Origin: a virus
Direction: 5' to 3' (one strand)
DNA length: 64,000 bases
Virus record (IMG/VR): IMGVR_UViG_3300017774_006254
Coordinates: 97,503-161,502 of that record
Each line of letters opens with the position of its first letter. Positions within the stretch are counted from its first letter, which is position 1. Below the pieces are notes generated by a model. That model was not told the origin of the DNA. It worked only from the letters and a program-made list of their open reading frames with translations, and ran no database searches. Made by a program: the position numbers and the translations under genes. Positions 7,728 to 53,900 of this stretch are shown here, piece after piece.

Positions 7728-8119
7728 TCGAACTTGTCCGTCCAATTCGAGTTGGGTTCTGGAGGCCAGTTACGCAGCCAGCGAAGTCAGCAAAATCGCT
7801 ACTTGGGCAACTTCTTGAGGGCTTGGACGACTGTCTTTCTCCCGAGCCCGATGTGCGCAAGTTCGTCAGTCGCAACTGGAATGCTGAAGAGCGACAGGTC
7901 GTAGCCGAATACGTCGAAGATCAGCGGTTTCGTTCAGCGGTGTACTTCGGAAGCTCCCGTTGTCGATTTTGCGGCAAAGAGAACGGAGTCGCCGACTTTA
8001 CGGACAAGACGTATGTCTGGCCGGAAGGTTTTGGCCATTACTTGCGTGAACACAGTGTTCGTCCTCCGTTGGAGTTCGTCGCGCATGTACGCCGCCGCCT
8101 TCGGGATGGTTTGCGTTAG
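7724..8119 (+). CDS. Hypothetical protein (YxGxSxCRxC motif)
   Basis: YFGSSRCRFCG...WPEGFGHYLREH. Confidence 0.7.
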   Translation: MIELVRPIRVGFWRPVTQPAKSAKSLLGQLLEGLDDCLSPEPDVRKFVSRNWNAEERQVVAEYVEDQRFRSAVYFGSSRCRFCGKENGVADFTDKTYVWPEGFGHYLREHSVRPPLEFVAHVRRRLRDGLR

Positions 8120-9159
8120 GTGACGATGCCCCTGGCAAGCTCTTCGGCCGCGGCACGCACCTTCAAGAACATCTCTTCGTGAGACTTTGTGGGACCGCTG
8201 ATCTTGTGTAGGTAGATAGCTGTTGTGTTGGGCGTGGCATGGCCCAGGAAGGCCTGGATGTCCTGAAGACGGGCTCCAGCCTTGTCCAGATCGCGAGCGG
8301 CCATGTGACGCAGACCGTGCAGGCGTACGGTGGCCAGGTCTACTTCGGCTCGTTTTGCGGCCCGAGCCAAGATCTTGTTCATCATGCGCGGGGACAGGGG
8401 TTTGTTTGGCTCGCACTTCTCCGTGAGCGCGCAGTCTCGCATCGAGCAGAAGACGCCATCGTCAGGACCCAACCCTTGAAGGCGACCAGCAGCAATCCAG
8501 TACGCTTTGAGAGCCTCGTAGCAGATGCTTGGTATCTCGAAGTGCTTCACGGCGCCGCCCTTCACTCGGCATCGGTATGACCGTGGTGTCGCTTTGAGAT
8601 CGAGGTCTTTTAGGCAAAGCGAGGCGACTTCAGTGCGACGGCGGCCAGTGAAGGCGAAGAACAGCAAGATGGCCCGATCGCGAATTCCAGCAGCATCCGA
8701 TGGGAGCTTGTCTAGTATCAGCTTGAACGTCTGCCACTCCATCGGAATGGCATGTCCGTAGGGCGTAGGCTTGATGTCCGAGCGAGGAACGTGCTCAAAC
8801 GGGTTGTATCTAAGAAGCGGTTCCCCGTTCGCGCCGCTAGGCTTGCGCAAGAAGTCGAAGTACGAACTCATGGCGGAGATTCTGTAGTACGCCGTCGAAG
8901 CCCCGACGTTCTCCATGAGGTGCTTCTTGAACCCAACGGCATGGGCCACCGTTACATCTTCGGGGCACATCCAGTTGTAGAGCGTGAAGAACTGCTTGAT
9001 CGAGGTACGGTACGCACGCTTCGTGTTTTCGGGCTTTCCTTCGAGGAAAGCAGCCAGCATCAACAGATGGCTCTTCAACTTCACGTTGTCCCCATTGCCG
9101 AACCTGGACAACGAAGCACTGTCTCGTGGCACGAACGTAAGTTCAGTAGCGGTACTCAT
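8116..9159 (-). CDS. Tyrosine recombinase/integrase (XerC/D-like)
   Basis: SAM-like N-domain; TGRRRTEV (R), VKGG (K), HGLRH, LGHA, TTAIY catalytic residues. Confidence 0.93.
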   Translation of the reverse strand: MSTATELTFVPRDSASLSRFGNGDNVKLKSHLLMLAAFLEGKPENTKRAYRTSIKQFFTLYNWMCPEDVTVAHAVGFKKHLMENVGASTAYYRISAMSSYFDFLRKPSGANGEPLLRYNPFEHVPRSDIKPTPYGHAIPMEWQTFKLILDKLPSDAAGIRDRAILLFFAFTGRRRTEVASLCLKDLDLKATPRSYRCRVKGGAVKHFEIPSICYEALKAYWIAAGRLQGLGPDDGVFCSMRDCALTEKCEPNKPLSPRMMNKILARAAKRAEVDLATVRLHGLRHMAARDLDKAGARLQDIQAFLGHATPNTTAIYLHKISGPTKSHEEMFLKVRAAAEELARGIVT

Positions 9160-9246
9160 GCGAAGAACAATACTCCTTCTTGACACCAAGTGCTCTGTCT
9201 GACACGGTGAACATCCTGACATCTATTTGTCGGAAAGGACGTACAA

Positions 9247-9540: not shown

Positions 9541-9614
9541 GCTCCCGTAGCTCAGTTGGATAGAGCAGTCGCTTCCTAAGCGAAAGGTCCCAGGTTCAAC
9601 TCCTGGTGGGAGCG
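9541..9614 (+). tRNA. tRNA-Arg(CCT)
   Basis: Acceptor GCTCCCG/TGGGAGC, D arm GCTC..GAGC, anticodon loop TTCCTAA, T loop GGTTCAACTCC; no encoded CCA. Confidence 0.93.
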
Positions 9615-21743: not shown

Positions 21744-22109
21744 GGGCGTGAAAGGTGTCGACGGAGTGACTGGAGACCGTGTTGCGTGCAGGGGTTGATC
21801 GGCTGGCCCCTATATCAAGCCGATCATCGTAGATGCGAACGAAAGCAACTACGCTCGCGCCGCGCAAGCAGCCTGAGCCGTTTGGTGAAGTAGGCGGCGG
21901 ACTTCATCGGGCGTCATTTAGCCGAGGCAAGCTTGTTTTGTATCCTCAGGATTCAAGCCCAAGGCTGTTCATCTGAAGATTGGTGGAGGAGTGACCGTCA
22001 CTCCCGACCGGGCCGCACCAGCTGAGAGCGGTACTCTCGAACAGGTGATACGCACGTAGACGCACGGAATTTGGCATTTCGGACCCGGGTTCGACTCCCG
22101 GCACGTCCA
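21744..22109 (+). ncRNA. ssrA: tmRNA
   Basis: Acceptor GGGCGTG/CACGTCC-A with G3.U70, T arm CCGGGTTCGACTCCCGG, tag ORF 21835-21876 ANESNYARAAQAA*. Confidence 0.95.
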
Positions 22110-22110
22110 T

Positions 22111-22140
22111 CGCCACCTGGAAACGGGTGGCGTTTTCTTT
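22111..22140 (+). terminator. Intrinsic terminator
   Basis: CGCCACCTG-GAAA-CGGGTGGCG followed by TTTTCTTT. Confidence 0.85.
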
Positions 22141-39133: not shown

Positions 39134-40874
39134 GATCCATCTCCTGCACGAAGCACGTAGTTGCAGATGTAGTCGAGTCCTTTATCGGGCCACCCCTCTT
39201 CCTCTTGAGTCGCCTCGTCAGCTGGGCGCTCCTTGTAGTCCACCTGCACGCACGTTTGGACCGGAAGGAGCATCCCCCACTGCACCCCTCTCATCATGCC
39301 GTCTTCGGGCCAGTGATCGCCTCGAAGCTCCAAGCACGACCTGGCGGCATCTCTCGCCTTGTCAGCGGAGTCGTACTCGTAGAAACAACCTTCTTCGTCG
39401 ATGGAGTACCAGGCAGCAGTCTTGCTCTCGTCGGCTGGCTTGAGCCCGCGCTGTTCGAGCTGTGCACGCATGATTCGGTTCTGCGCCATCACGAAGTCCG
39501 CCCCGAGGCGCACAGCCGCGATTTCGTCGAAGAGCCTGTCGAGCGCCTTCAGCCCTTCCAGCTTCTCCGTACAGGTGCGACAAGGACGCGTTCGCATCCG
39601 CTCAACCGTGCACGCTCCGCACTTCACAGCGCTGAGAATGGATGCCTTGGCCTTGTCTATTTCATCGTTGGTCATGATCAATTCCTGGTGAGCTGGGGCC
39701 TGGACTACTGCCTCGAATCTCGACCTTGTTCAGGTACATGCCGAGAACTTCGGACATAGCCTGTTCTTTGTCAGCTGGGAGGAACCACACTTCGGGAGCG
39801 AACCCGCGCCGTTCCAGTTCATCGAAGAGCGGCTTGGGATCTGTCATCGGTTTGAACGCGTCCATGACTTTGCGCGGAGCGGCATCGTCCCACTGGTCGC
39901 GTTCGGAGTTGTAGGCATCGAGGGCATGCTGCCCGCTGGGCTCGGGAGTACAGAGCGTGCAGACCGTCATATCGCGCACTGACTGCCGGTAGAGCATGCG
40001 CATGGCGTTGAAGATGTGCTCGTCTTCCATGTCGGCGATTCGAATCGACGAACCGTCCTTCATCTTCCAGCTAGGTTCCGTCTTCATCTGCGCCACCTTT
40101 CTTCGTGCCTGTGAAATCGGCCCAGCAAGAATCGCAGGCGAACGTCTCTGTCGCAGAGATCTTGCGCTGTGCTCCAGCGACAGAATAGAACTTTCGAGGC
40201 TCATAGAACCGCGCAGTGGCGGCGGCGCGGCAAGTGTAGTTTCGGTAATGGCACGGATGGTCTCCAACCCCGTCCCAGCCACAGCGACAAGCCTTACTCA
40301 TCTTCGCCCTCGTCGTCCTCGTCGTCCTCATCCCGCTCTGGATGCCACGGGCCGCCAAGATCCACTGTCGGGCCATCGGGAGGCGACGGGAGGTACCCGG
40401 CGGAGGTGCCCGAGGCATGCGCACGACCCATCCGGTTCTTCAGGTCTGCGTTCAGGCTGAGGAGCGCCGCTCTTACCACTTCCATCTGAAGCTCAACAAG
40501 CAATTGCTCGTACGTCATGTCGACGGTCAGATAGGCATCGACGATGGGCGACCAGAGCCGGTAGACGGGTTTACCGTCGCGAATTCGGTGATGGATAACG
40601 CTCATGTCGGTTCTTTCGTGTTGGCGGGCACTGCGTACTTCGCTGGCACCACGTACCACGCGGGCCATGGGCAAGAGTGCGGGGGCTGAGGCGGTCTTAT
40701 GAGCAGACCCCGATCACAGAGAGTGGCGACGTTGACGCGGATGTCGTACGCGCGAAGGTCTGCGCGCCAGACAGAGTCGCGCTGCATCGCGCGGCGGTGC
40801 GACTTGTTGAGAAGCACGCGCTCTCGAAGCTTTGCGCGGCGTGTCTTGGGCGGATGGCAGCTTGGCTTGGTCAC
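39130..40874 (-). CDS. Several hypothetical ORFs (39130-39681, 39662-40087, 40294-~40605, 40602-40874)
   Basis: Overlapping or closely spaced ORFs. Confidence 0.55.
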
Positions 40875-43800
40875 AGGACTTTCTCCTCGGTAATTTCGAT
40901 GCGCAGCACGCTGCCATCAGCGCCGCGCTCGCTAACCCAGGAGGTCGGTGTTTCCTCAGTCCATCTTGGAGAAGTCACGCGGTGCCTTGTGACTTGTTGC
41001 TGAGCGGAGTCGATCGTCGAGTGCAGGGTAAGGGGCCCTTCCCCCAGCAAGATGTGCTTCCTCCCTGCTGGTGACAGCTGGTACCTCTTCAGGGTTACAG
41101 CGAACACCAAGGCGGAGACAGGTGGAACGCTCGCGTTTGCTACTGGCTCCCAGTCGCTAAGCCTGATGCGGACGATAGCGGCCTTGCGCGGCCACCAGGC
41201 CGTCCACCATCCAGCGCTTGAATTCGTATCAAGCTCTCGCAGCACAAGCTCCTCGTTCTGGCTGACGTGCTCTGGCGAGTAGATTGGCTGGTGGAGTTCG
41301 ATGATCTGGTTCGGACCTGGCTTGCGCGGGCGAACTCGGCGCTCTGGAGATGGCGATGGCTGAGCGAAGATTTCCCTCAGTGCACCTCGACCAGATCCAG
41401 GCCGTCCGTCCTTCCCGCGGTCCGTAACAACCAAGTCGTAGCTTCTGATCGTGGCCACGCCGTTGGCATTGGGAACGACTGCACGAGCCTCTGCTTCTGT
41501 TGCGAACACGTTGTTGAAGTGCCCATCGACCGTGACGACGAACATCTTTGTCGTATCGCTTGGGAAGCGAGCCACGAACTCGCGAGACTTGATTTCACTG
41601 TCCCCAAAGACGCCCTTGCAGTCCAAGAAGAACTCGAACACGCATTCATCTTCTGGGTTCGGGGATGGTGGTGCCACAGGCGGAACGCCTGAGGGGGTAC
41701 CGCCGTAGTAGCTGACAGCGTTCTTCGGTTCCTCGGTCTCCTTCTTTAGCCACTTGGTGTACGCAGCAAGCGCGATGTCAAAGTCAACGTGTACGCGGCC
41801 CCATCCGATCTGGATGATGTCCAAGCTGTACTCGCCCGATGAAACGAACTCGCAGATCGAGCGCAGGAATTTTGCTGAGTTGTCCTCAAGCACCTGCGCA
41901 CCTGGCTCCGCATCCAAACCGAGCACTAGGCGCTCATGCGTGCAGCGAAGCAGCTCTCGCTGAACCATGTACGCGCCGTCGTGGTAGCCCATGACGACAC
42001 CGCGCGAGCCGTCTGGCATCTTCACGAGCGTCCCAACGGTGAGCACGTGATCACCTCGCTTCACCTTGGGGAACTTCCCATCCATGATCTCAGGCATGAG
42101 GATCGCGGGGACGAGCGCTCGGTTGATCTTCGCTGCGATAGCGTCACCCTGGCGGATGCTGTCCAGCCCATGGCTGAGGTCGTAGGCCATGGTATGAGTG
42201 ACGCGCCGGACCGTGGGAGTGCTTGGGCGCTTGTAGTTCTCTGACATGTAGACCATGTAGACATGCGGTTCGAAGTACGTCGCACCGGTTGCAGGTGCTA
42301 CGAACAGGTCTCCCACACGAGCAGGCTTCTTCAGTGAGGAGCCCTTGATGAACTTGTTGCAGTAGTCACTGCTGACGAGTTGGTCGTAGACGTCCTTGGG
42401 ATCGTCGGCTTTCTCTCTGGGTGCCTGGCGTGCCTGGCTTGCGACGATAGAGACGGCTTCGATGGCTTCGATGAGAGCTTGGTTTTCACTGCCTTCGTCT
42501 TCTTCTGGGTCACCTTCTTCGTCAGACGGCTCGGCAGGTGGCTCAGGACTGGGCTCGGGCGGCACGTCGGTGGTGGGCGCGTTGACGAACTGAAACAGGA
42601 ACGTCTCGCTTCTCGTTGTGATGCGACCGCGCGAGTCGTTGTCCAGGAGCAGTTGCCAGTGTGTGTCCTCGACCGGCTTCGCGATGCCGCTGGCTTTCAG
42701 GTCGTAAAGGTCTCTCAAGACGCCGCCGTGTATGACGCGACCGCGCATGCTGTCCGTGAAGTTGAGAACGCGCTGGCCTTTGACGGCTGGGAACAAGACG
42801 AACGTTCCTGCGGGCCGTGTAGCGTGCCAGTGAATGGACTCGGTCGTGACGAAGTCGTTCTCCTTGTCAGTCCCGACTTTCACGGACATCTCTGGCTGAA
42901 AAGTGCACTCTTTGATGCGGTCAGCGGGGTCGTTCTTGAACATGCCGACGCGCAACAGCTTGGGGCTCGGAGCTGGCTCGGGGTTGGACTCGGGAGTCGC
43001 GCGCGAGAGTTCGTTGAGGCGCGCAAAGTGGTCGGAGGCGTTGTAGGTCGTCTCCGGCACAGCGGTGCCTTCTGGCTTAGCGTCGGGAGCAGGTGCCGGA
43101 ACGCTGACGAACTTGAAGGCCGCGGTTACGTGGCTGTCGAGTTCCAGTAGGCCATGCATGTCCTCGGTCAGACCGATCACCCAGCGCGCCCCGTCGTTCT
43201 TGGCAACGTTGTCTTCTCGCAGGCCTTCCAGGTCGCGAGTGATGGAGCCTGCTCCGACGCGCCCACGCGCATGCTCAGTGAACTGCAAGGTGCACCCATC
43301 GGATGTCAGGCGAATGGCAATGTGCTCAGAAATCGACACGTACTCGATGATCTGGCCCGGTTTGTAGTCGTCTTCTTTGACAAGCTTCTTGTCCTTGAAG
43401 AAGCCGACGCGCAGTTGCTTCGAGGGCTGGTTCTGGACGGCGGTATCTGGTGCGGGCGTGATGGGCACTTGTTTCTCCTTCGAGTGGGCGGCGAGCATGG
43501 TGGTGAGTTCAGAACGGGTGACGCGTAGTTCGTTGACGAGGGCGTCGGCGGCTTCTTGCGGGCTTCCGTGACCCGTTACCGTGATGCCCGTAAGTCGAGG
43601 CCCGTACTTGTCGCGCGTCTTGAACGAGGCGCCCCAGGTGTCGGTGCGGGGGCTGTGAAACACGACGGTTTCCCCGGGCCTCTCTCCGCTATGCCCGCAG
43701 TAGAAGCGGCCGTGCTCCTTCCCCATCTCTTTCCCGAGGAAGAACACGGGGCCTCGCTCCTTGCCCACGAGTCTGTCCAGCGCTTGCTTCTGAGGCGGCG

Positions 43801-45655
43801 CGACGTGGGCGATTCTCGCCGTGGCGATTTCGATCTTGTTGGAGCTGACCACGAGCATGACGAGGCCTTGGTTCAGCAGCTCGAACAGGAACTCTCGTCG
43901 ATCGGGCCAGATGACCTCGTGGATGAAGCCATCGCGACTCATCTTGGTTCCAAAAAGGTGCTCCCACATCGCCGCCGCCTCGGCGCTGACGTCGATCACT
44001 TTGGAGGTGTGACCAGCGGGGAATGCACCGCACCAGAGCGTGTCACCGCGCTCAAAACGCATATTGTCGCGCGTGTAGCGGAAACCGGCGACAGGGGCTT
44101 TTACTGGCGCTTCCTCTTCTGGCCCGTCAACTAACACAAGCTTCTCGAAGTGGTCTTCATGCGCCTCGAACGCTTCGGATGACATGTGGAAAGTCTTGCC
44201 CGGGCGCTCGGTACATCGAACCCAGAATTCTTCGTTATCGTTGATAGGCGGGTGACGCAGGTCTTTGAGATTCACCGTGAAGGTCGTGCCGTCGCAATTC
44301 ACCACGTCAGCTTCAGATGCGTTGACCAGTCTCACGACGTGGCAGAGTTCGGCTCGGAACCCGGTACCAAAGAGCACTGCGTCGCCTGGTTCGAAGGCGA
44401 ATGTTGTGGTTTCTGGGGTAGTTACTGCGCGCACGGTCACTTCGTCGTTGCGCCAGTACCTCGTTCCCCGGTTTGTTTCGACCGTCAGATGGCCCCCTCT
44501 GGCGTCGGTGACCACGCCAGAATTCCCCGATCTTTCCACGGTGTCTCCGACTTTGATCTCTTGGAGGACTGCGGGGGCAGGCGTTGAGGGGAAGTGCGTG
44601 ACGACGGGGACGAACTTCGAGACGCGGGCCATGTCGGATGTGGGCATCACGAAGAAGCCGTCTTGCGGACGCTCAGGACATCGAACCCAGTCGCCCTCGC
44701 GAACGTCAGGGCGCCGCAGGAACTTCGGCTCGATCGCCTTCGTGGTAACGCCGTTCAGGTCTGTGATGTCGACGCTGGAGCCAGCCAGACTCACGCTCTT
44801 CACGACGTAGCGAGTGGCTCCGTCGAGGTCGAGCGTGGTGACAATGTCTCCAGGCTCGAAGTCTGCGCTCGCAGCCTCTTGCTTTGGCGGTGCGACTCGA
44901 ACGTAGTAGATGCGCTGCTCGTGAAGGTCTGCGCTAAACGAGACAGGAGCCTCTCGGGGATAACGGAGATCACGAACCCAGTCGTTGACGCTGAGAGGAG
45001 CGTGCCGAAGGTCTCCGGGGCTTATGTACACCTCGCCACCGTTCACGCTCAATGCGTCCTGGCCAAGCTTTCGAATCACGACAGATTCTTCGTAGGCACG
45101 CGTGACCACAAACTTGGCGGCAACCTCCACCGGCAGAGTGCCTGTCACGATGTCGCCAGTCTTGAACCCGTGCGCATAATCTTCAGGCATCGATTCGACT
45201 GGAAAGCCAGCTCGCTTGTTCCAACAATCCTCACTCTCGATCGTCACGACACCCGGCGAGATTTCAGCCGTCAAATAGACACCGCCACCATGCGGGATTC
45301 CAAGGTGCGCCATGAGGTGCGAAGGAAGGCGATGGAGCCCGTTTTCCGTGACGTGCGATACGCCGATTCCGCGAGCGCCGATCGACGTCTGCTTTCCGTC
45401 GACAATTTCGTTCAGAAAGCCAACAGCCTCATCCCAGGTGCTGGCCTCCCAGGTGGCAGCCGTCAGCTGAGCTGGATCCCCAAGGCCGTCGGCCCGAGCC
45501 CGAGCCTCGGAATAGCGGCTCAGAAAATAGGCCCTCAGCCTTTGCAAACGGCGCATCAGGCGGCGCGTGGCGTAACGTCTCGATTTCATTGGGTATCTCC
45601 GGATTGAGCTGGGTGCCCAGGGTAGGCGCGTACCATATGACACCGCCTGGCCCAT
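40871..45655 (-). CDS. Giant (~1590 aa) modular protein with SH3/KOW-like repeats
   Basis: FxxGDxV..LR.P..WVR module three times; LRVG.FK..FT..RGRV..RDL module twice; Pro-rich linkers. Confidence 0.85.
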   Translation of the reverse strand: MGQAVSYGTRLPWAPSSIRRYPMKSRRYATRRLMRRLQRLRAYFLSRYSEARARADGLGDPAQLTAATWEASTWDEAVGFLNEIVDGKQTSIGARGIGVSHVTENGLHRLPSHLMAHLGIPHGGGVYLTAEISPGVVTIESEDCWNKRAGFPVESMPEDYAHGFKTGDIVTGTLPVEVAAKFVVTRAYEESVVIRKLGQDALSVNGGEVYISPGDLRHAPLSVNDWVRDLRYPREAPVSFSADLHEQRIYYVRVAPPKQEAASADFEPGDIVTTLDLDGATRYVVKSVSLAGSSVDITDLNGVTTKAIEPKFLRRPDVREGDWVRCPERPQDGFFVMPTSDMARVSKFVPVVTHFPSTPAPAVLQEIKVGDTVERSGNSGVVTDARGGHLTVETNRGTRYWRNDEVTVRAVTTPETTTFAFEPGDAVLFGTGFRAELCHVVRLVNASEADVVNCDGTTFTVNLKDLRHPPINDNEEFWVRCTERPGKTFHMSSEAFEAHEDHFEKLVLVDGPEEEAPVKAPVAGFRYTRDNMRFERGDTLWCGAFPAGHTSKVIDVSAEAAAMWEHLFGTKMSRDGFIHEVIWPDRREFLFELLNQGLVMLVVSSNKIEIATARIAHVAPPQKQALDRLVGKERGPVFFLGKEMGKEHGRFYCGHSGERPGETVVFHSPRTDTWGASFKTRDKYGPRLTGITVTGHGSPQEAADALVNELRVTRSELTTMLAAHSKEKQVPITPAPDTAVQNQPSKQLRVGFFKDKKLVKEDDYKPGQIIEYVSISEHIAIRLTSDGCTLQFTEHARGRVGAGSITRDLEGLREDNVAKNDGARWVIGLTEDMHGLLELDSHVTAAFKFVSVPAPAPDAKPEGTAVPETTYNASDHFARLNELSRATPESNPEPAPSPKLLRVGMFKNDPADRIKECTFQPEMSVKVGTDKENDFVTTESIHWHATRPAGTFVLFPAVKGQRVLNFTDSMRGRVIHGGVLRDLYDLKASGIAKPVEDTHWQLLLDNDSRGRITTRSETFLFQFVNAPTTDVPPEPSPEPPAEPSDEEGDPEEDEGSENQALIEAIEAVSIVASQARQAPREKADDPKDVYDQLVSSDYCNKFIKGSSLKKPARVGDLFVAPATGATYFEPHVYMVYMSENYKRPSTPTVRRVTHTMAYDLSHGLDSIRQGDAIAAKINRALVPAILMPEIMDGKFPKVKRGDHVLTVGTLVKMPDGSRGVVMGYHDGAYMVQRELLRCTHERLVLGLDAEPGAQVLEDNSAKFLRSICEFVSSGEYSLDIIQIGWGRVHVDFDIALAAYTKWLKKETEEPKNAVSYYGGTPSGVPPVAPPSPNPEDECVFEFFLDCKGVFGDSEIKSREFVARFPSDTTKMFVVTVDGHFNNVFATEAEARAVVPNANGVATIRSYDLVVTDRGKDGRPGSGRGALREIFAQPSPSPERRVRPRKPGPNQIIELHQPIYSPEHVSQNEELVLRELDTNSSAGWWTAWWPRKAAIVRIRLSDWEPVANASVPPVSALVFAVTLKRYQLSPAGRKHILLGEGPLTLHSTIDSAQQQVTRHRVTSPRWTEETPTSWVSERGADGSVLRIEITEEKVL

Positions 45656-45725: not shown

Positions 45726-46160
45726 ATGGCGCGCCCCAGGACCCCCTCAGTGACCTACTCGGAGCCCAGCTCGGAGGATTACGCGTCCAAAAACGTCGTG
45801 TCGTGCGACGGCTGCGGAAGGGACTGGCCGCGTTCGATGGCGGTCCCGCGCCTGAAGAAGTGCGTCAACTGCGCTCGGGACTGGTGGAGAGCCGCGCAAG
45901 GCGTGCACCGAACAGGCAACGGATCCACTCCAAAATTGCGTCTTCCGAAACCACTTTCGCTTGCACCAAACGGAATGGACGTCGACGCATTCTTGAAGAC
46001 GCGCACTGGCGTTCCAGATCCCATCAAACGTGCGCCGCGAACTCGCGAAGAAAAGCACGATCCGAACGAGTCGATCGACAGCATCGTTTCGCGCATGACG
46101 GCGAGTGCGGTCCTTGAGGAAAATGTCGACGAAGAATTCGTCGACACGGACGCGAGCTGA
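45726..46160 (+). CDS. Zn-finger hypothetical protein immediately upstream of the hairpin array
   Basis: CDGCG...CVNCA; divergent from the giant ORF. Confidence 0.65.
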   Translation: MARPRTPSVTYSEPSSEDYASKNVVSCDGCGRDWPRSMAVPRLKKCVNCARDWWRAAQGVHRTGNGSTPKLRLPKPLSLAPNGMDVDAFLKTRTGVPDPIKRAPRTREEKHDPNESIDSIVSRMTASAVLEENVDEEFVDTDAS

Positions 46161-47100
46161 GCGGCACGATACCAGGCGTGCCTCGATTCGAAGCATCGAG
46201 GAGCTTTTGCGGCGCTGCTCCGGTCTCGTCTTCTGGGTGCCGAGATACCATTGCCGTCGCAGTCGGGTCTCGATTCGAAGCATCGAGAAGCTTTAGACCG
46301 GCGGTCTGTTGTCTCGTCTTAGGCGCCGAGAAGCTTTGGAGGCCAGATGAGATGCTGTCTCGACTCGTGTCGAGCTACCGCTGTGAATCGCTGGGTCTCA
46401 GCTTCGGGCGCCGAGAGGCCTGTGCGCGGAGGTTCTGATGTTGGTCTCTTCGTCTCGTCTTGGCGCCGAGATGCCGCTGAACAGTGGGCGCGGGTCTCGA
46501 CTTGAGCGTCGAGGGGCTCTTGTGAACGTCGGTGGGAGTTTGGGTCTCAGCTCAGTGCTGAGCTACTTTTTCCGAGTCGCGATGGTCTCGTCTTTGGGTG
46601 CCGAGCAACCTCTACTGAGCGGCACGCGTGTGAGCGCGGGTGCACGTGTCTCGACTCGAAGCGTCGAGGGGCTCTTATACTACTGCGCGGAGTGGTCTCG
46701 ACTCAGTTTCGAGGTGCTGAGGGTCTCGACTTGGCGCCGAGAAGCCTTGGTGAGGTGCCGAGATCGTAGACGCCTACGCGTCTTGGCTAAGTGCCAAGCT
46801 ACTCCTGTTCAACATTTCACTTCTCTCTGGTCTCGTCTTTGGGCGTCGAGAAGCCGTTGGCGCTTGCGAGTGCCCATGCTCGCGGGGTTTCAATTCGAAG
46901 CGTTGAGAAGCTTTGGCGTAGTTCTTCGCATCCACGAGGATTGGGTCTCGGCTGGGCGTCGAGAAGTCTTTGGCAAAGGCTAGCTGCCTCAGTTCGAGGT
47001 GCTGAGGAACCGTGTCTCGGACTCATGTCTGACGTCTCGTCTTCGGGTGCCGAGTAACCTCTACCGAGCGGACTCTGTCGCGTCTCGACATCGTGTCGAG

Positions 47101-47319
47101 CTACTCCAACCCGTTCCACTTGTCTCGGCTGAGCGCCGAGCGGCCCTTGTCTTCGAGTTCCAACTCGTCCTCCGCATCGTGCATCACTGACATGAAATGC
47201 TCCGAGGTGTTGGTGTCGATACCCTTTCTCAGAGCCTCTTGAACGCGCGAAGCGTACGCGGGCGTACCTAGGCGCTCTCGCACGCGCGCTTGGAATTCTT
47301 CGCTGGTCTTGTCGATCAT
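47101..47319 (-). CDS. Small ORF embedded between duplicated array units
   Basis: 72 aa; flanked by 31-nt direct repeats 47110-47140 and 47329-47359. Confidence 0.5.
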   Translation of the reverse strand: MIDKTSEEFQARVRERLGTPAYASRVQEALRKGIDTNTSEHFMSVMHDAEDELELEDKGRSALSRDKWNGLE

Positions 47320-47907
47320 GGCGCCACGCCCGTTCCATTTGTCTCGGCTGAGCGCCGAGGTGCCTTTGTAAGGTGGACTTTCAGCCTCAGGTCGAAGGTG
47401 CTGAGGAACCGTTCGCTCTGTCTCGACTTGGGTGTCGAGCTACTTCTTATTGCTTACCAACTTGTCTCGACTGGGCGTCGAACTGCCGTTGCGCGTCTCC
47501 ACATCGTCTTGACTCGGTGCCAAGCAACACTCGGTTTCTTCATGAGGCTCGCCTGGGCGTCGAGCTGCTTTCATCCCGGAGGTTCCATGTCTCGGCATCG
47601 TGCCGAGCTACTTCTAAGAGTGATCGAACGTCCAAGCAGTCCGTTCCACTTGTCTCGGATAAGCCCCGAGCGACCGCAAGCCATCCCAGCGAGTCTCAGC
47701 TTCGAGGCGCTGAGCTGCCTTGGGCGGATGCAACTTGCCTCGCTTGGTCAGCGAGTAGAAGCCGTTGTGAACCGGGTCGTCAACGATGTCTCGGCTGAGC
47801 GCCGAGCGGCAGTAGCCTATGTCCTTCATGTCTCAGTTGGGTACCGAGTAACCGTTGAGACTCTGCCTCGGCTTTTGGTGCTGAGGAACCTATGCGACAC
47901 TGCCCTC

Positions 47908-48111
47908 GTGGCAACGCCAAAGTCGGTCCTCGTGTTTCAGAAGCTTGTTGACGGTGAGTACCAAATTGTTGCCACCTTTGGCGAGGTGGACACCGAGCTT
48001 GGCATCGCCTGGATGAGAGCGCGCAGGATGGGCGAGGACTACCACCGTGCTCAAGTGTGGAGAGGTGACGTTCTTACTTCCATCCCGATCGATTTCCTGA
48101 GCGGGAGTTGA
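47908..48111 (+). CDS. Small ORF embedded in the array
   Basis: GTG-start 67-aa ORF filling the repeat-free gap. Confidence 0.5.
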   Translation: MATPKSVLVFQKLVDGEYQIVATFGEVDTELGIAWMRARRMGEDYHRAQVWRGDVLTSIPIDFLSGS

Positions 48112-48556
48112 CACTGTCTCGGGAACTCCGAGCTGGCTCGACATGGGCATGTCTCAGTTCGCGAAGGCACTGAGAGACCGTAGAACTTGCACATTCGCCT
48201 CGCCTCTGTGACGAGGAACCGCTGGCTTCTCGATCGTGCTTTGACCAGCACGCGTCGCACCAGAGTCGCGCTTCGGGCGTCGAACCTGTATCGCAACCAA
48301 AATCATACGGAAAAACCTTCAAGCACTTCGGACACCGGAATAGCTCGTACCGGTCGAGCACTCTGGTCAGATGGCGCCTTCGCGGCAGGCGGAACTTTTG
48401 TGAACTAAAAGAACCGTCCTGATTTGGAAAGCAGATCCGTACTTGCATTTCATCTCTTCGGTGCGCGGGTGACATTGCCTCGCTCGACAGCGAGTGGTTC
48501 ATAGGCGTAGGCACGTGGTCTCGATTAGAAGGCATCGAGAAGCCGTCGGCAGTAAT

Positions 48557-50475: not shown

Positions 50476-50928
50476 TCAGCGTGCCCTTCGCAGCCAGTCG
50501 TTGAACGACGGGTTACTAAGGGCGTAGAGCCTCTTGGTTTGGATGTTCGAGATGGTCGCTTCCACATCTGCGCCAAGGGTGATGAGGCTTTCGGCGAGGA
50601 CGAGGCCAGATCGATTGCGACCAGCGGCGCACGTCACAAGAACAGTCTTGCCGTCCTTCAAGGCTTCGACAACAAGGCCGACCGCGCGAAGCACCTCGGG
50701 TATCTGCGGCTCGATGTAGTCGTCGTTGAGACGAGCGTGCACCACACTGTGGTACTTGCTGATGGGCTTGAAGCGGGACTTGTCGAGGACGCTTTCTCCG
50801 TCAGGCGCAAGCTCCCACGCGACGTTCATCTTGAAGTCGAACTGATCGAGTTCTTCCCCGTAAGCGAGAAGGCCTCCGATCGCAACACCTGCCTCGATGA
50901 GCGTGTACGGCGCTGTTGAGCGGCTCAT
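50476..50928 (-). CDS. Dual-specificity/tyrosine protein phosphatase #2
   Basis: VLVTCAAGRNRSG (CX5R), LNDD acidic loop, LSNPSF. Confidence 0.85.
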   Translation of the reverse strand: MSRSTAPYTLIEAGVAIGGLLAYGEELDQFDFKMNVAWELAPDGESVLDKSRFKPISKYHSVVHARLNDDYIEPQIPEVLRAVGLVVEALKDGKTVLVTCAAGRNRSGLVLAESLITLGADVEATISNIQTKRLYALSNPSFNDWLRRAR

Positions 50929-53900
50929 GACGATTTCTCGCACTGACAGGCCTTCTCTTTGAGCCGCGCCTGCCCGACGTATGCAGTACCGCACGCTCGG
51001 CACGACGGTTCCCCACCGATCTCGCACTTCACTTCGTATCCGTACAGCAGCCAAGGGCAGACAATCTTCCCAGCCAGGCACGCCTGATGCTCTTCGGTGT
51101 AGCGAGAACCGACGACCTCGATTGGCCCAGTCTCATCATAGTCTGGTTCTCGAAGTACCGACACCTTCCACTCATGTTTGACGCAGAATGCGTGAAGATT
51201 CACTGCCATCTGCGTCCAGAAGTCTGAAGCCTCGTATCCGCCCCAGATCATCTTCAGGTGCACAGCAAGGCTTCTCTCGGTCATCTCGACGACCTTGGCC
51301 CACTTGTGCCAGGGCCCTGTGCCCAGCTCGAATGCCTCGCGGGGTACGCCTGCATTGGCAACTACGTAGTAGTACGTTCCCATCACTCCTCCTTCTCTTT
51401 CAGAAGCGCAGACAATCGCTGGATGACAACCCACGCAAAGATCATGTTCTGCGAGATGACACGTCCATCAGGAAGCATCTCGCTGTCGCCTGTGACGTTG
51501 TAGACCTCGGTTCGGAAGTCTCCGACGTCGTGGTCTGTCCCACGCTCTTTGGCGTCAGAGAGAATCTCTTTCAGCTCCACCAATTCACGGCGAGCTTTGT
51601 CGGGTTCGCGCATGCTGTCGGGATCGTGCTCTCCTCCGGGCACGCACTCGGCAATGTACGATTCGAGTTCTTCGCAGAAGCGGTCGATGCTCGGATTCCA
51701 GATGATCGCGTCAGCGCCACTGCCCATAGCGGTGCGCACTTTTTCCATGAAGTAACCGTCATCAGGGCGCGCACGGTTCATCCAGTGCACAGTGCTAGCG
51801 GGGCTCGTAGCGTCACGGTAGTGGCCGAAGAGAACTGGGTCTCCACCGTCTCCGTGGACCAAGAGCGTTCCCCTGGCGAGCACGGCGACTTCGGCCCAGT
51901 AGTTGTTCGTTCCGGGCTTCTTGATGAGCCAACGATCGCATTGGTTCGCAAGGTGATGCACGGGCGGTGCATGCGGCACGATCTGATGCTCGGCGTACCA
52001 GCTGGTCGCGCGTTCGACCGCGGCCTTTGTCTCCTCTTCTGTCTTGGTCTTCGTTCGCTCAGTCATCCGTCGAAAGTAGTTCTCGCGCCACTCTCCGTCA
52101 ACTACTTTCGACAGACCGCTAGCGCTACACGATCGTCTCTACAGCCGCTAGACTGTCTGGCCGCTCGCGTCGAAGGCGCGCAACAAATTCGGCTCTGGCT
52201 TGGGCACGACCAGAGAGCGAATGCGCTTCTTTCTTGGTGGCCGCCAGCACAACGATTGCCAGCGCGGCGGGACCTTTGCTGAAGTGCGCGGGCTGATCGA
52301 AAACCAAATTGATCTCGGCCCAGCGCTCTGCTCCGATGCTCTCGTCTAAGCACTTGGCGAGAGCGGCCGTGCTTTTGACGGGGTCCTCCTCGTACTTCTC
52401 CCACGCGGCCATCCAAGCCTGCACTACGGTGTCTGGGATGTGCGATAGGCGACTTCGCGAAACGGTCCGTGTTGTCGTGGCCTCCTTGTTGCCGGAAGCG
52501 ATGCCGAGAATCGTGTCCCGCAGCGAATGTCGAACAAGAGCGGTGTTCTTCTCGAAGTCCACTTCAAGGACTTCCACTTCCACGGGCGGCGCCTGAAGGA
52601 AGCTGAGCAGGGCGGTCGGGGCGAGTAGCATCTTCTTCATTGTTATCAGTTCCTTGCATTGGTCCGCACTGACAGCACACCTGCCCCTCTTCCTTTACGA
52701 AGCGGGCAAGTATGTGAGCGCCGCATTCGGCGCAGCGGTATCGGAGAGAGCGACTACTGCTTTTGAAGTGGAACACAAAGTTGGCAACGAGGACCATAGT
52801 GCGCCCTAGGTCTGTGATCGGGTACTCGATGTCAGACAGTCGTTGCAGGGCTCGCTCGCATGGGGCCAGCGCTTCGTAGTCTGGAGTTACAAAGATGTTC
52901 CCTGTTATAGTGAGCATCAGAGGTTCCTCAACTCTGTGAGCTTCTGAACAAGTTCTTCTTGTACGAAGTCGGCCAGTAGTCCGGCCTGGTGGAACATGTC
53001 CATGAGTCGAGCGAGTTCAGGAATGACCTTCTTCAGGTGCTCGGCTCGTAGCCGTTTTCTATCTGAGTTCTTGTTGGGTTCCGGGTAGTCAGTTTTCGGG
53101 TAGTCAGTTCTGCGCAGGTCACCCGAGGCTCTCAGTTTGACGAAGGCGTGCCAGTCGTGCTCCTGACCGCAAAAGTGACACTCCGTCGGAAGCAACCGGT
53201 AGTCGCATCACAGAAAGCGAAGTCGCTCACCATCCATATGGAATTCCTCGTCGTCAGAAGAACGAGACCATCCTCGCTCGCGAGCCATTCGTCGCAACGA
53301 GCACACAGCACTCTTGACCCACTCGCTGCCGACAGGTGACCCGAAGCTGAAACGCCTTCTAGTATTGGCGGAAGAGCGCTGGCAAGTTGCACGCGCCGTT
53401 GCACGGGTTGCCACCGAGCGTCACTCATGGCTTCAGCGGTTCAGTCATCGCGACGCGAATGTGCTGTGCCCGTGCCGCAACCTTGCCGATGCGATCGAGA
53501 ATGGACTTCGCTACTACCGTTGGCGCGGCGAGAACTTTCTCAGCCTGCGCTTCACACCATTCAGCGCGTTCGAAGGCGCCGAGACGGACAGCTGTTTCGG
53601 CGCGTTCTATTTCGCGAGCGTATGCGCGACGGAAGACCTCCGCCACTGACTCATAGGCTGCGTTTTTGACGCGGGTCTCCAGTACCTTTTGCAGCGTGGG
53701 GGGCGGGTGCATGAAGATCATGCTGTTCGGAGTGAGGTGCTCCAGTAGCTTTTTCCGCAGTGCCTCTGTGCCTAGGCGAGCAACGAATTTTTCACGCACA
53801 TCAGGTAGTTCGTCGATGATCCGCTCAAGTACGAGCATCGACGCGCGTTCTACTGATTTCGCGTGTCTCCGTTGAACGACCTCCTCTGCGCCAAGGATGT

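Follow-up and report, generated by a model that had tools for sequence, protein, structure and literature searches.

The closest described relatives of the locus analysed here are the type V-M CRISPR systems, whose Cas12m effectors have been characterised as MmCas12m2, GoCas12m and MsCas12m (PDB 8HHL, 8PM4, 23VW). Published Cas12m crRNAs share the layout ...UAG-CUCAG-loop-CUGAG-AC-guide (Bigelyte 2024, supplementary table, PMC11013384), and the Cas12m2 structure contains a 6-bp helix pairing positions -22 to -17 with -8 to -3, G(-23) and A(-24) before it, A(-2)C(-1) after it, a pseudoknot and a 17-bp heteroduplex (Omura 2023, PMC10442227). Phage-borne Cas12m was first claimed for myxophage MV-1 in a September 2026 preprint, which describes one consensus repeat and eight spacers (bioRxiv 10.64898/2026.09.14.751636). 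Within a limited literature search we found no description of degenerate, minimal Cas12m arrays. Repeat-derived handles outside a canonical array on a mobile element, as here, are familiar as solitary repeat units, RNA anti-CRISPRs and CRISPR-repeat-like regulatory RNAs; unlike those, the handles of the phage studied here match its own effector and stand in an array in which about 17 nt of unique sequence come after every handle.

The source genome is a complete virus record of 161,502 bp with direct terminal repeats. Its last 64 kb (64,000 nt) form the window, the whole stretch of DNA that was analysed, and positions refer to the window unless given as genome positions. A first-pass annotation had singled out a pair of near-identical repeats around a 72-aa open reading frame (ORF72) and read them as the trace of foreign DNA acquired by the array with duplication of a repeat unit. 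With moderate confidence, we propose a different explanation: the flagged repeats are adjacent units of a phage type V-M (Cas12m) CRISPR-like array, ORF72 is a resident gene, and the near-identity of the two copies comes from duplication of a whole unit. The features on which the argument turns are listed in Table 1.

Table 1. Features of the window array and its surroundings, with single handles of bacterial genomes for comparison
Feature	Position	Strand	Basis
Whole array, 36 Cas12m-type handles of diverged sequence and conserved pseudoknot fold	46178..48547	-	Hairpin scan and covariance model
Upstream copy of the duplicated unit (crRNA sense is minus)	47329..47369	-	Best covariance-model hit in the genome, 36.9 bits
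Downstream copy, same handle, guide seed AAGTGGAACGGG, encoding the last 14 residues of ORF72	47110..47150	-	Second-best covariance-model hit, 36.3 bits
Third, more diverged copy, guide seed AAGTGGAACGGA, no adjoining ORF	47640..47680	-	Repeat search, 76%
ORF72 (P0001), conserved small gene between two array blocks	47101..47319	-	Coding score and homologue
Second ORF-sized interruption of the array, ~67-aa ORF (within P0006), antisense to the array	47908..48111	+	Coding signal and homologue
Terminator-like hairpin with T-run, downstream of the last unit of the array	45794..45810	-	Consensus scan only
Single handles in metagenome-assembled genomes (MAGs)	L232 7889-7921, L233 2258-2290, L234 4887-4919		Beside cas12m homologues

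A covariance model built from 28 units was run, together with a hairpin scan, on the whole genome. It gave 36 hits in the window array and five in a mini-array beside cas12m (genome 77066-77290, where about seven units can be counted by eye), and found no unit in the genome outside these two arrays. On the plus strand the unit reads GT-CTCGNN-loop-NNCGAG-nnnCC. In the RNA sense, a 3-nt pseudoknot strand is followed by 2 nt and the 6-bp helix CTCGNN/NNCGAG, with the partner of the pseudoknot strand as the first bases of its loop; AC and about 17 nt specific to the unit come next. Mean column identity among the units is 62%. The helix is 97% paired and carries 25 double-sided changes, against 8.7 in shuffles, and its pairing falls to 30-43% when the 3' partner is slid by 1-3 columns. 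The pseudoknot is 86.6% paired, with changes on both sides in all three of its pairs; on the plus strand, the last three loop bases covary with positions +3 to +5 after the stem (GGC/GCC, GGT/ACC, AGC/GCT, GT/AC). The balance of G-U and A-C mismatches (~8 vs 7) is uninformative for strand, and the array strand was set without recourse to wobble pairs, from the orientation of the genes and the homology with published crRNAs: since the published Cas12m crRNAs match in this direction and the flanking genes run in the same sense, the minus strand is taken as the RNA sense. The terminator-like hairpin beyond the last unit may mark the end of a putative array transcript.

Gaps between handles range from 16 to 46 nt. 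Because each handle is followed by AC, about 17 nt of unique sequence and a flank of 3-7 nt, which together account for the 22-26 nt seen in 18 of the 38 gaps, we identify the array as a trimmed type V-M array, diverged in sequence and conserved in structure. Two of the 38 intervals hold an ORF and the other 36 are too short for one. The phage locus resembles type V-M Cas12m systems in its full-length homologous effector, in the published UAG/helix/loop/helix/AC-guide layout of the handle with its pseudoknot and 17-nt guide length, in having no tracrRNA-like requirement and in the absence of adaptation genes. It differs in that its repeats are far more diverged than those of characterised arrays and trimmed to ~26-30 nt, in spacers of ~17 nt as against ~36 nt, far shorter than in any characterised array, and in being phage-borne, with a second array 66 kb from the gene and small genes inside the array. 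Near-identical repeats of ~36 nt alternating with 30-40-nt spacers are not what the window array contains. Terminators, promoters, REP elements, parS sites and iterons had also been considered for the units, and were ruled out by the covarying stems, the variable loops and the confinement to two loci; protein-coding repeats were ruled out because the coding scores are negative and the period is not divisible by three.

An exact search for the hairpin in IMG/VR gave no hits. IMG/VR and JGI contigs were also scanned with a double-hairpin pattern; most hits were single and due to chance, and the informative loci (L081, L009/L060 and L187) were picked by hit density. These loci suggested a CRISPR repeat, which led to a screen of the large proteins encoded by the phage. 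The phage encodes a Cas12m of 624 aa (genome 74613-76487), 66 kb from the window array, which matches the Cas12m of PDB 23vw_A (E 3.9e-81 over residues 28-596), Cas12m2 of 8hhl (4.5e-32), 8pm4 and the Pfam family PF07282 (Cas12f1-like TNB domain). Its RuvC D-E-D residues are kept; published Cas12m proteins with D-E-D are nevertheless DNA binders. The mini-array lies just downstream of cas12m, after a LysM gene and in the same sense. With MV-1 the phage shares a Cas12m of ~610-624 aa, the RuvC D-E-D triad, an adjacent array, the lack of cas1/2/4 and the lack of identified protospacers, and it differs in its ~41-43 diverged handles, minimal spacers and embedded ORFs (bioRxiv 10.64898/2026.09.14.751636). 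Also on this genome, at 81383-84505 (plus strand), lies a ResIII/SNF2-type helicase with an intein insertion (Hint and LAGLIDADG homing endonuclease domains).

The same hairpin recurs in two further complete viruses, each with a Cas12m homologue (31-34% identity) directly beside its arrays; neither homologue retains the RuvC D-E-D residues. The first, G001 (L081; IMGVR_UViG_3300028903_000001, 120 kb), has a canonical array with the 36-nt repeat GTCTCGAC-AAGCAAGAT-GTCGAG-CTACTACCGCTAC and a period of ~73 nt. Its region 77788-82563 (L081/L230) holds two canonical arrays with ~36-nt spacers, each followed by a common trailer of ~180 nt, with an ORF between them, and the first RuvC aspartate is missing from its Cas12m. 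The second, G002 (L009/L060; IMGVR_UViG_3300009148_000001, 86 kb), has degenerate arrays of the hairpin, and a near-copy of this virus is present in metagenome contig L187. Between 26786 and 35577 of G002 (L009, L060, L229) both strands carry Cas12m-type handles, ~30 in all, grouped in several arrays that run in gene sense, and one of these arrays lies directly upstream of the cas12m start codon; the spacers of ~8-17 nt, some of them themselves repeated, are too short for a 17-nt guide. Further homologues (35-37% identity), in MAGs of Polyangiaceae and other bacteria including Pseudomonadota, have a single handle with AC beside the gene and no array. Polyangiaceae MAGs give the best bacterial hits of the 624-aa protein, which is a lead to the host only. 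We found no match to cas1 or cas2 (PF01867, PF09827) in the complete phage genome in a search that covered the viral sequence and detected its positive controls, though such enzymes might be supplied by the host; both genes are likewise absent from G001 and G002. The first-pass annotation, which had likened the array to CRISPR, was thus right about its kind, the handles being of type V-M and the effector encoded by the phage itself; the spacer-type capture that it attached to the likeness is unsupported.

The flagged pair is real. Its two copies are 41 nt long and 90% identical, the 31-nt core first noticed matching at 30 of 31 positions, and they enclose 188 bp, close to the ~190 bp reported as free of repeats: the covariance model finds no unit between 47148 and 47339. 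ORF72 opens with an ATG 10 nt past the upstream copy and closes in the downstream copy and that copy's spacer, where its stop codon and the 14 codons before it (RSALSRDKWNGLE) lie; the third partial copy is also present. In the RNA sense, each copy opens with a 10-nt flank, runs through the handle and AC, and extends 12 nt into the guide; in the upstream copy the 5' flank is followed by the 6-bp helix CTCGGC/GCCGAG with the loop GCTCA, AC and the guide seed AAATGGAACGGG. The three guides read AAGTGGAACGGG-TTGGA (downstream copy), AAATGGAACGGG-CGTGG (upstream copy) and AAGTGGAACGGA-CTGCT (third copy), and a fourth unit at 47776-47816 has a hairpin identical to that of the pair. The likeness of the pair goes beyond family resemblance, because it extends for 12 nt past the hairpin (11 of 12 identical) into sequence that otherwise differs from unit to unit. 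What was duplicated is therefore a whole crRNA unit including its PAM-proximal seed, unlike in Cas1-Cas2 adaptation, where the repeat alone is duplicated.

That the pair is the most similar in the array, as had been claimed, is not clear: the units at 46585 and 47034 match at 35 of 38 positions (92%) and those at 46173 and 46260 at 31 of 35 (89%). Neither of these pairs brackets an ORF, which speaks against reading the flagged pair as the trace of an acquisition. Duplicates of a unit with part of the neighbouring spacer recur in the array and in G002, and three units share one guide seed; unit duplication followed by divergence would thus be the apparent mode by which the array changes.

ORF72 scores as coding (+0.159 per codon) and exceeds the 99th percentile of wrong-frame windows. 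Its 90% cluster has a second member, P0008, from a related contig of 157,568 bp, which is identical at 68 of 72 positions (94%) and of equal length, the array-encoded tail included. One of the differences, L63P, corresponds to a change of the loop from GCUCA to GCCCA that keeps the hairpin, and the guide of the downstream copy is conserved in the same relative. Besides P0008, we found no homologue of ORF72 among 1.84 billion representatives, no family hit and no distant homologue, and the gene is absent, as is P0006, from the other two Cas12m viruses. No clear Shine-Dalgarno sequence precedes it, and its AlphaFold model of three helices (pLDDT 62) was of too low confidence for a structure search. 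The ~67-aa ORF of the second interruption lies in a gap of the array at 47886-48117 and has a strong coding signal in the plus frame (0.28-0.32); no family matched it, and its homologue P0007 on the 157,568-bp relative is 88% identical.

The two relatives known to us, Logan contigs of 157,568 and 139,356 bp, were compared through their proteins. A search of IMG/VR for the locus with the 1594-aa neighbour, ORF72 and the 135-aa neighbour, a scan of JGI metagenomes with an alignment of the 1594-aa protein, and megablast and tblastn searches of INPHARED phages gave no relatives. The 1594-aa ORF lies directly downstream of the array (40871-45655, minus strand) and has relatives only in the two Logan contigs (68-78% identity); neither Pfam nor PHROG gave a hit for it, and nothing evident ties it to the array. 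Upstream of the array, among otherwise unknown genes, a dual-specificity phosphatase-like protein is encoded at 50476-51081 (minus strand), its Pfam scores lying below the curated cut-offs. For the 157,568-bp relative, identity is 76-78% in the 1594-aa neighbour and 91% in the 135-aa neighbour. Given that P0008 is identical at 68 of 72 positions while the neighbouring genes stand at 77% and 91%, the arrangement of unit, ORF and unit is older than the split of the two phages, and the ORF is under no less constraint than its neighbours. The 139,356-bp relative has both flanking genes, and its protein records, the only records compared, contain no homologue of ORF72 or P0006; the missing records could reflect an empty site or ORFs that were simply not called.

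Since a diverged relative has the ORF, array-encoded tail included, at 94% identity, the arrangement is old and not a recent insert, and nothing in the flagged pair points to foreign DNA captured recently. The segment is native in composition, with a GC content of 58.5% against 59.3% for the genome, neither insert has a paralogue or fragment elsewhere in the genome, and the homologues in other contexts that a mobile insert might have left were not found for ORF72. Spacer acquisition by Cas1-Cas2, which duplicates the leader-end repeat, has in common with this locus two repeat copies around a unique segment. It differs in that the duplication here reaches beyond the handle, 12 nt into the spacer and 10 nt into the 5' flank, in the length of the gene-bearing segment (188-202 nt, where the modal spacer has ~17 nt), in its position in the middle of the array and in the absence of cas1 and cas2 from a complete genome. 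Integron cassettes (IntI, attI, attC) likewise place a small ORF beside a folded repeat in an array, and capture of that kind had been suggested too, but the features of an integron are absent. There is no adjacent IntI; the only tyrosine recombinase in the window, at 8116-9222 (minus strand), is a phage integrase beside tRNA-Arg (9541-9614), 38 kb off. The units are 26-30-nt pseudoknots (GT-CTCG...CGAG) where attC sites have 57-141 nt with R''/L''/L'/R' boxes, and only two of the 38 intervals hold an ORF. ORF72 is most likely an old resident gene, conserved and nested between two blocks of the guide array.

Some observations count against a resident gene: a recombinational insertion, too, would leave a unique segment between 41-nt direct repeats, an ORF end supplied by array sequence looks like a junction, and the 139,356-bp relative could have an empty site. 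These would be explained by an ancient capture, in which the ORF72 segment was inserted in one unit, by a Campbell-type event through a shared unit or by illegitimate recombination, duplicating the 41-nt unit and replacing the 3' end of the ORF, with later deletion possible. The 90% identity of the repeats around 188 bp of unique sequence, the origin of the last 14 codons and the stop in array sequence, and the relative that has the flanking genes and no recorded homologue of ORF72 or P0006 all fit such an event. We nevertheless think it unlikely, given that the arrangement, tail included, is conserved in a relative whose neighbouring genes are 77-91% identical, that composition is native with neither paralogue, fragment nor homologue in other contexts, that similar unit pairs occur without inserts, and that a nearby recombinase, cas1 and cas2 are lacking.

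Gain or loss of the ORF72 segment by recombination between the 41-nt direct repeats is possible but, in our view, unlikely. The repeats might in that case mark a gene-sized gain/loss polymorphism, with units of handle plus seed as recombination substrates through which small genes enter or leave the guide array, and with the mRNA of the bracketed ORF cut by Cas12m, so that its expression is gated by the effector; this fuller proposal strikes us as rather improbable. Cleavage upstream of the downstream handle would cost ORF72 its stop codon, and the phage has a tmRNA (21744-22112, plus strand; tag ANESNYARAAQAA), whose relevance, if cutting by Cas12m leaves non-stop mRNAs, is speculative.

A related idea is that the handles flanking ORF72 are not so much genes for guide RNAs as sites at which Cas12m docks on and cuts phage mRNA, releasing or regulating the ORF72 message, with the "guide seed" as part of the regulatory site. 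One handle ends 27 nt before the start of ORF72 and another overlaps its end; handles share the sense of the surrounding genes in both phage arrays and in G002; and in G002 the spacers measure ~13-17 nt or less and units lie between genes and directly upstream of cas12m. Against this, 34 of the 36 units adjoin no ORF, the spacing equals the 17-nt guide length of the Cas12m2 structure and so fits guides better, and the cut just described would delete the stop codon of the very gene to be released, all of which makes a regulatory role of this kind doubtful.

Still less probable, and in our view very unlikely, is that the array is a decoy whose handles, with no functional guides, act as RNA mimics soaking up the Cas12m of the host or a competitor, ORF72 being unrelated or an anti-defence gene. 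RNA anti-CRISPRs that mimic repeats are known, and many diverged handles with neither adaptation genes nor detectable targets would suit that role, but the phage has its own Cas12m with a mini-array of the same handle directly downstream, a decoy has no need of a constant ~17-nt spacing, and the guide of the downstream copy is kept in the relative. That ORF72 is no gene and the 188 bp a long non-coding spacer or decayed stretch of array, as the lack of family hits, distant homologues and a clear Shine-Dalgarno sequence and the low pLDDT might suggest, is hardly credible for a frame that is intact, of equal length and 94% identical in the relative, scores as coding above 99% of wrong-frame windows and holds no unit remnants recognised by the covariance model.

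We return to the reading of the flagged repeats as units of a type V-M array around a resident gene. The window array is a second, distal array in addition to the mini-array that adjoins cas12m, and would be co-transcribed with its minus-strand neighbours. Cas12m would bind each handle and cut upstream of it, and the short crRNAs may then steer DNA binding or silencing at candidate targets. Targets in the phage's own genome are not apparent, the guides giving 16 hits with up to three mismatches compared with 17.9 +/- 4.6 for shuffled guides; in 1.7 Mb of fetched loci there were 11 hits compared with 10.8. Within the putative transcript the start of ORF72 follows the guide of the upstream unit, the downstream unit supplying its last 14 codons and stop. 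Unit sequences show drift with compensatory changes that keep the pseudoknot fold, and an array with neither Cas1 nor Cas2 would grow by duplication of whole units, handle and guide seed together, and not by adaptation or cassette capture.

With regard to ongoing capture of cassettes or spacers, the result is largely negative. What the flagged spot suggests is that the array grows by whole-unit duplication, guide seed included, and that conserved small genes can sit within it and share sequence with a crRNA unit. The overlap of ORF72 with such a unit makes a link between RNA processing by Cas12m and phage gene expression testable. Should the units serve as guides, the phage would equip its own Cas12m with some 40 minimal guides, each fixed and ~17 nt long, and their upkeep would depend on structure-preserving drift and unit duplication in place of adaptation. 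The locus would then be a natural non-repetitive guide array, perhaps with a silencing programme hard-wired against the DNA of hosts or rivals.
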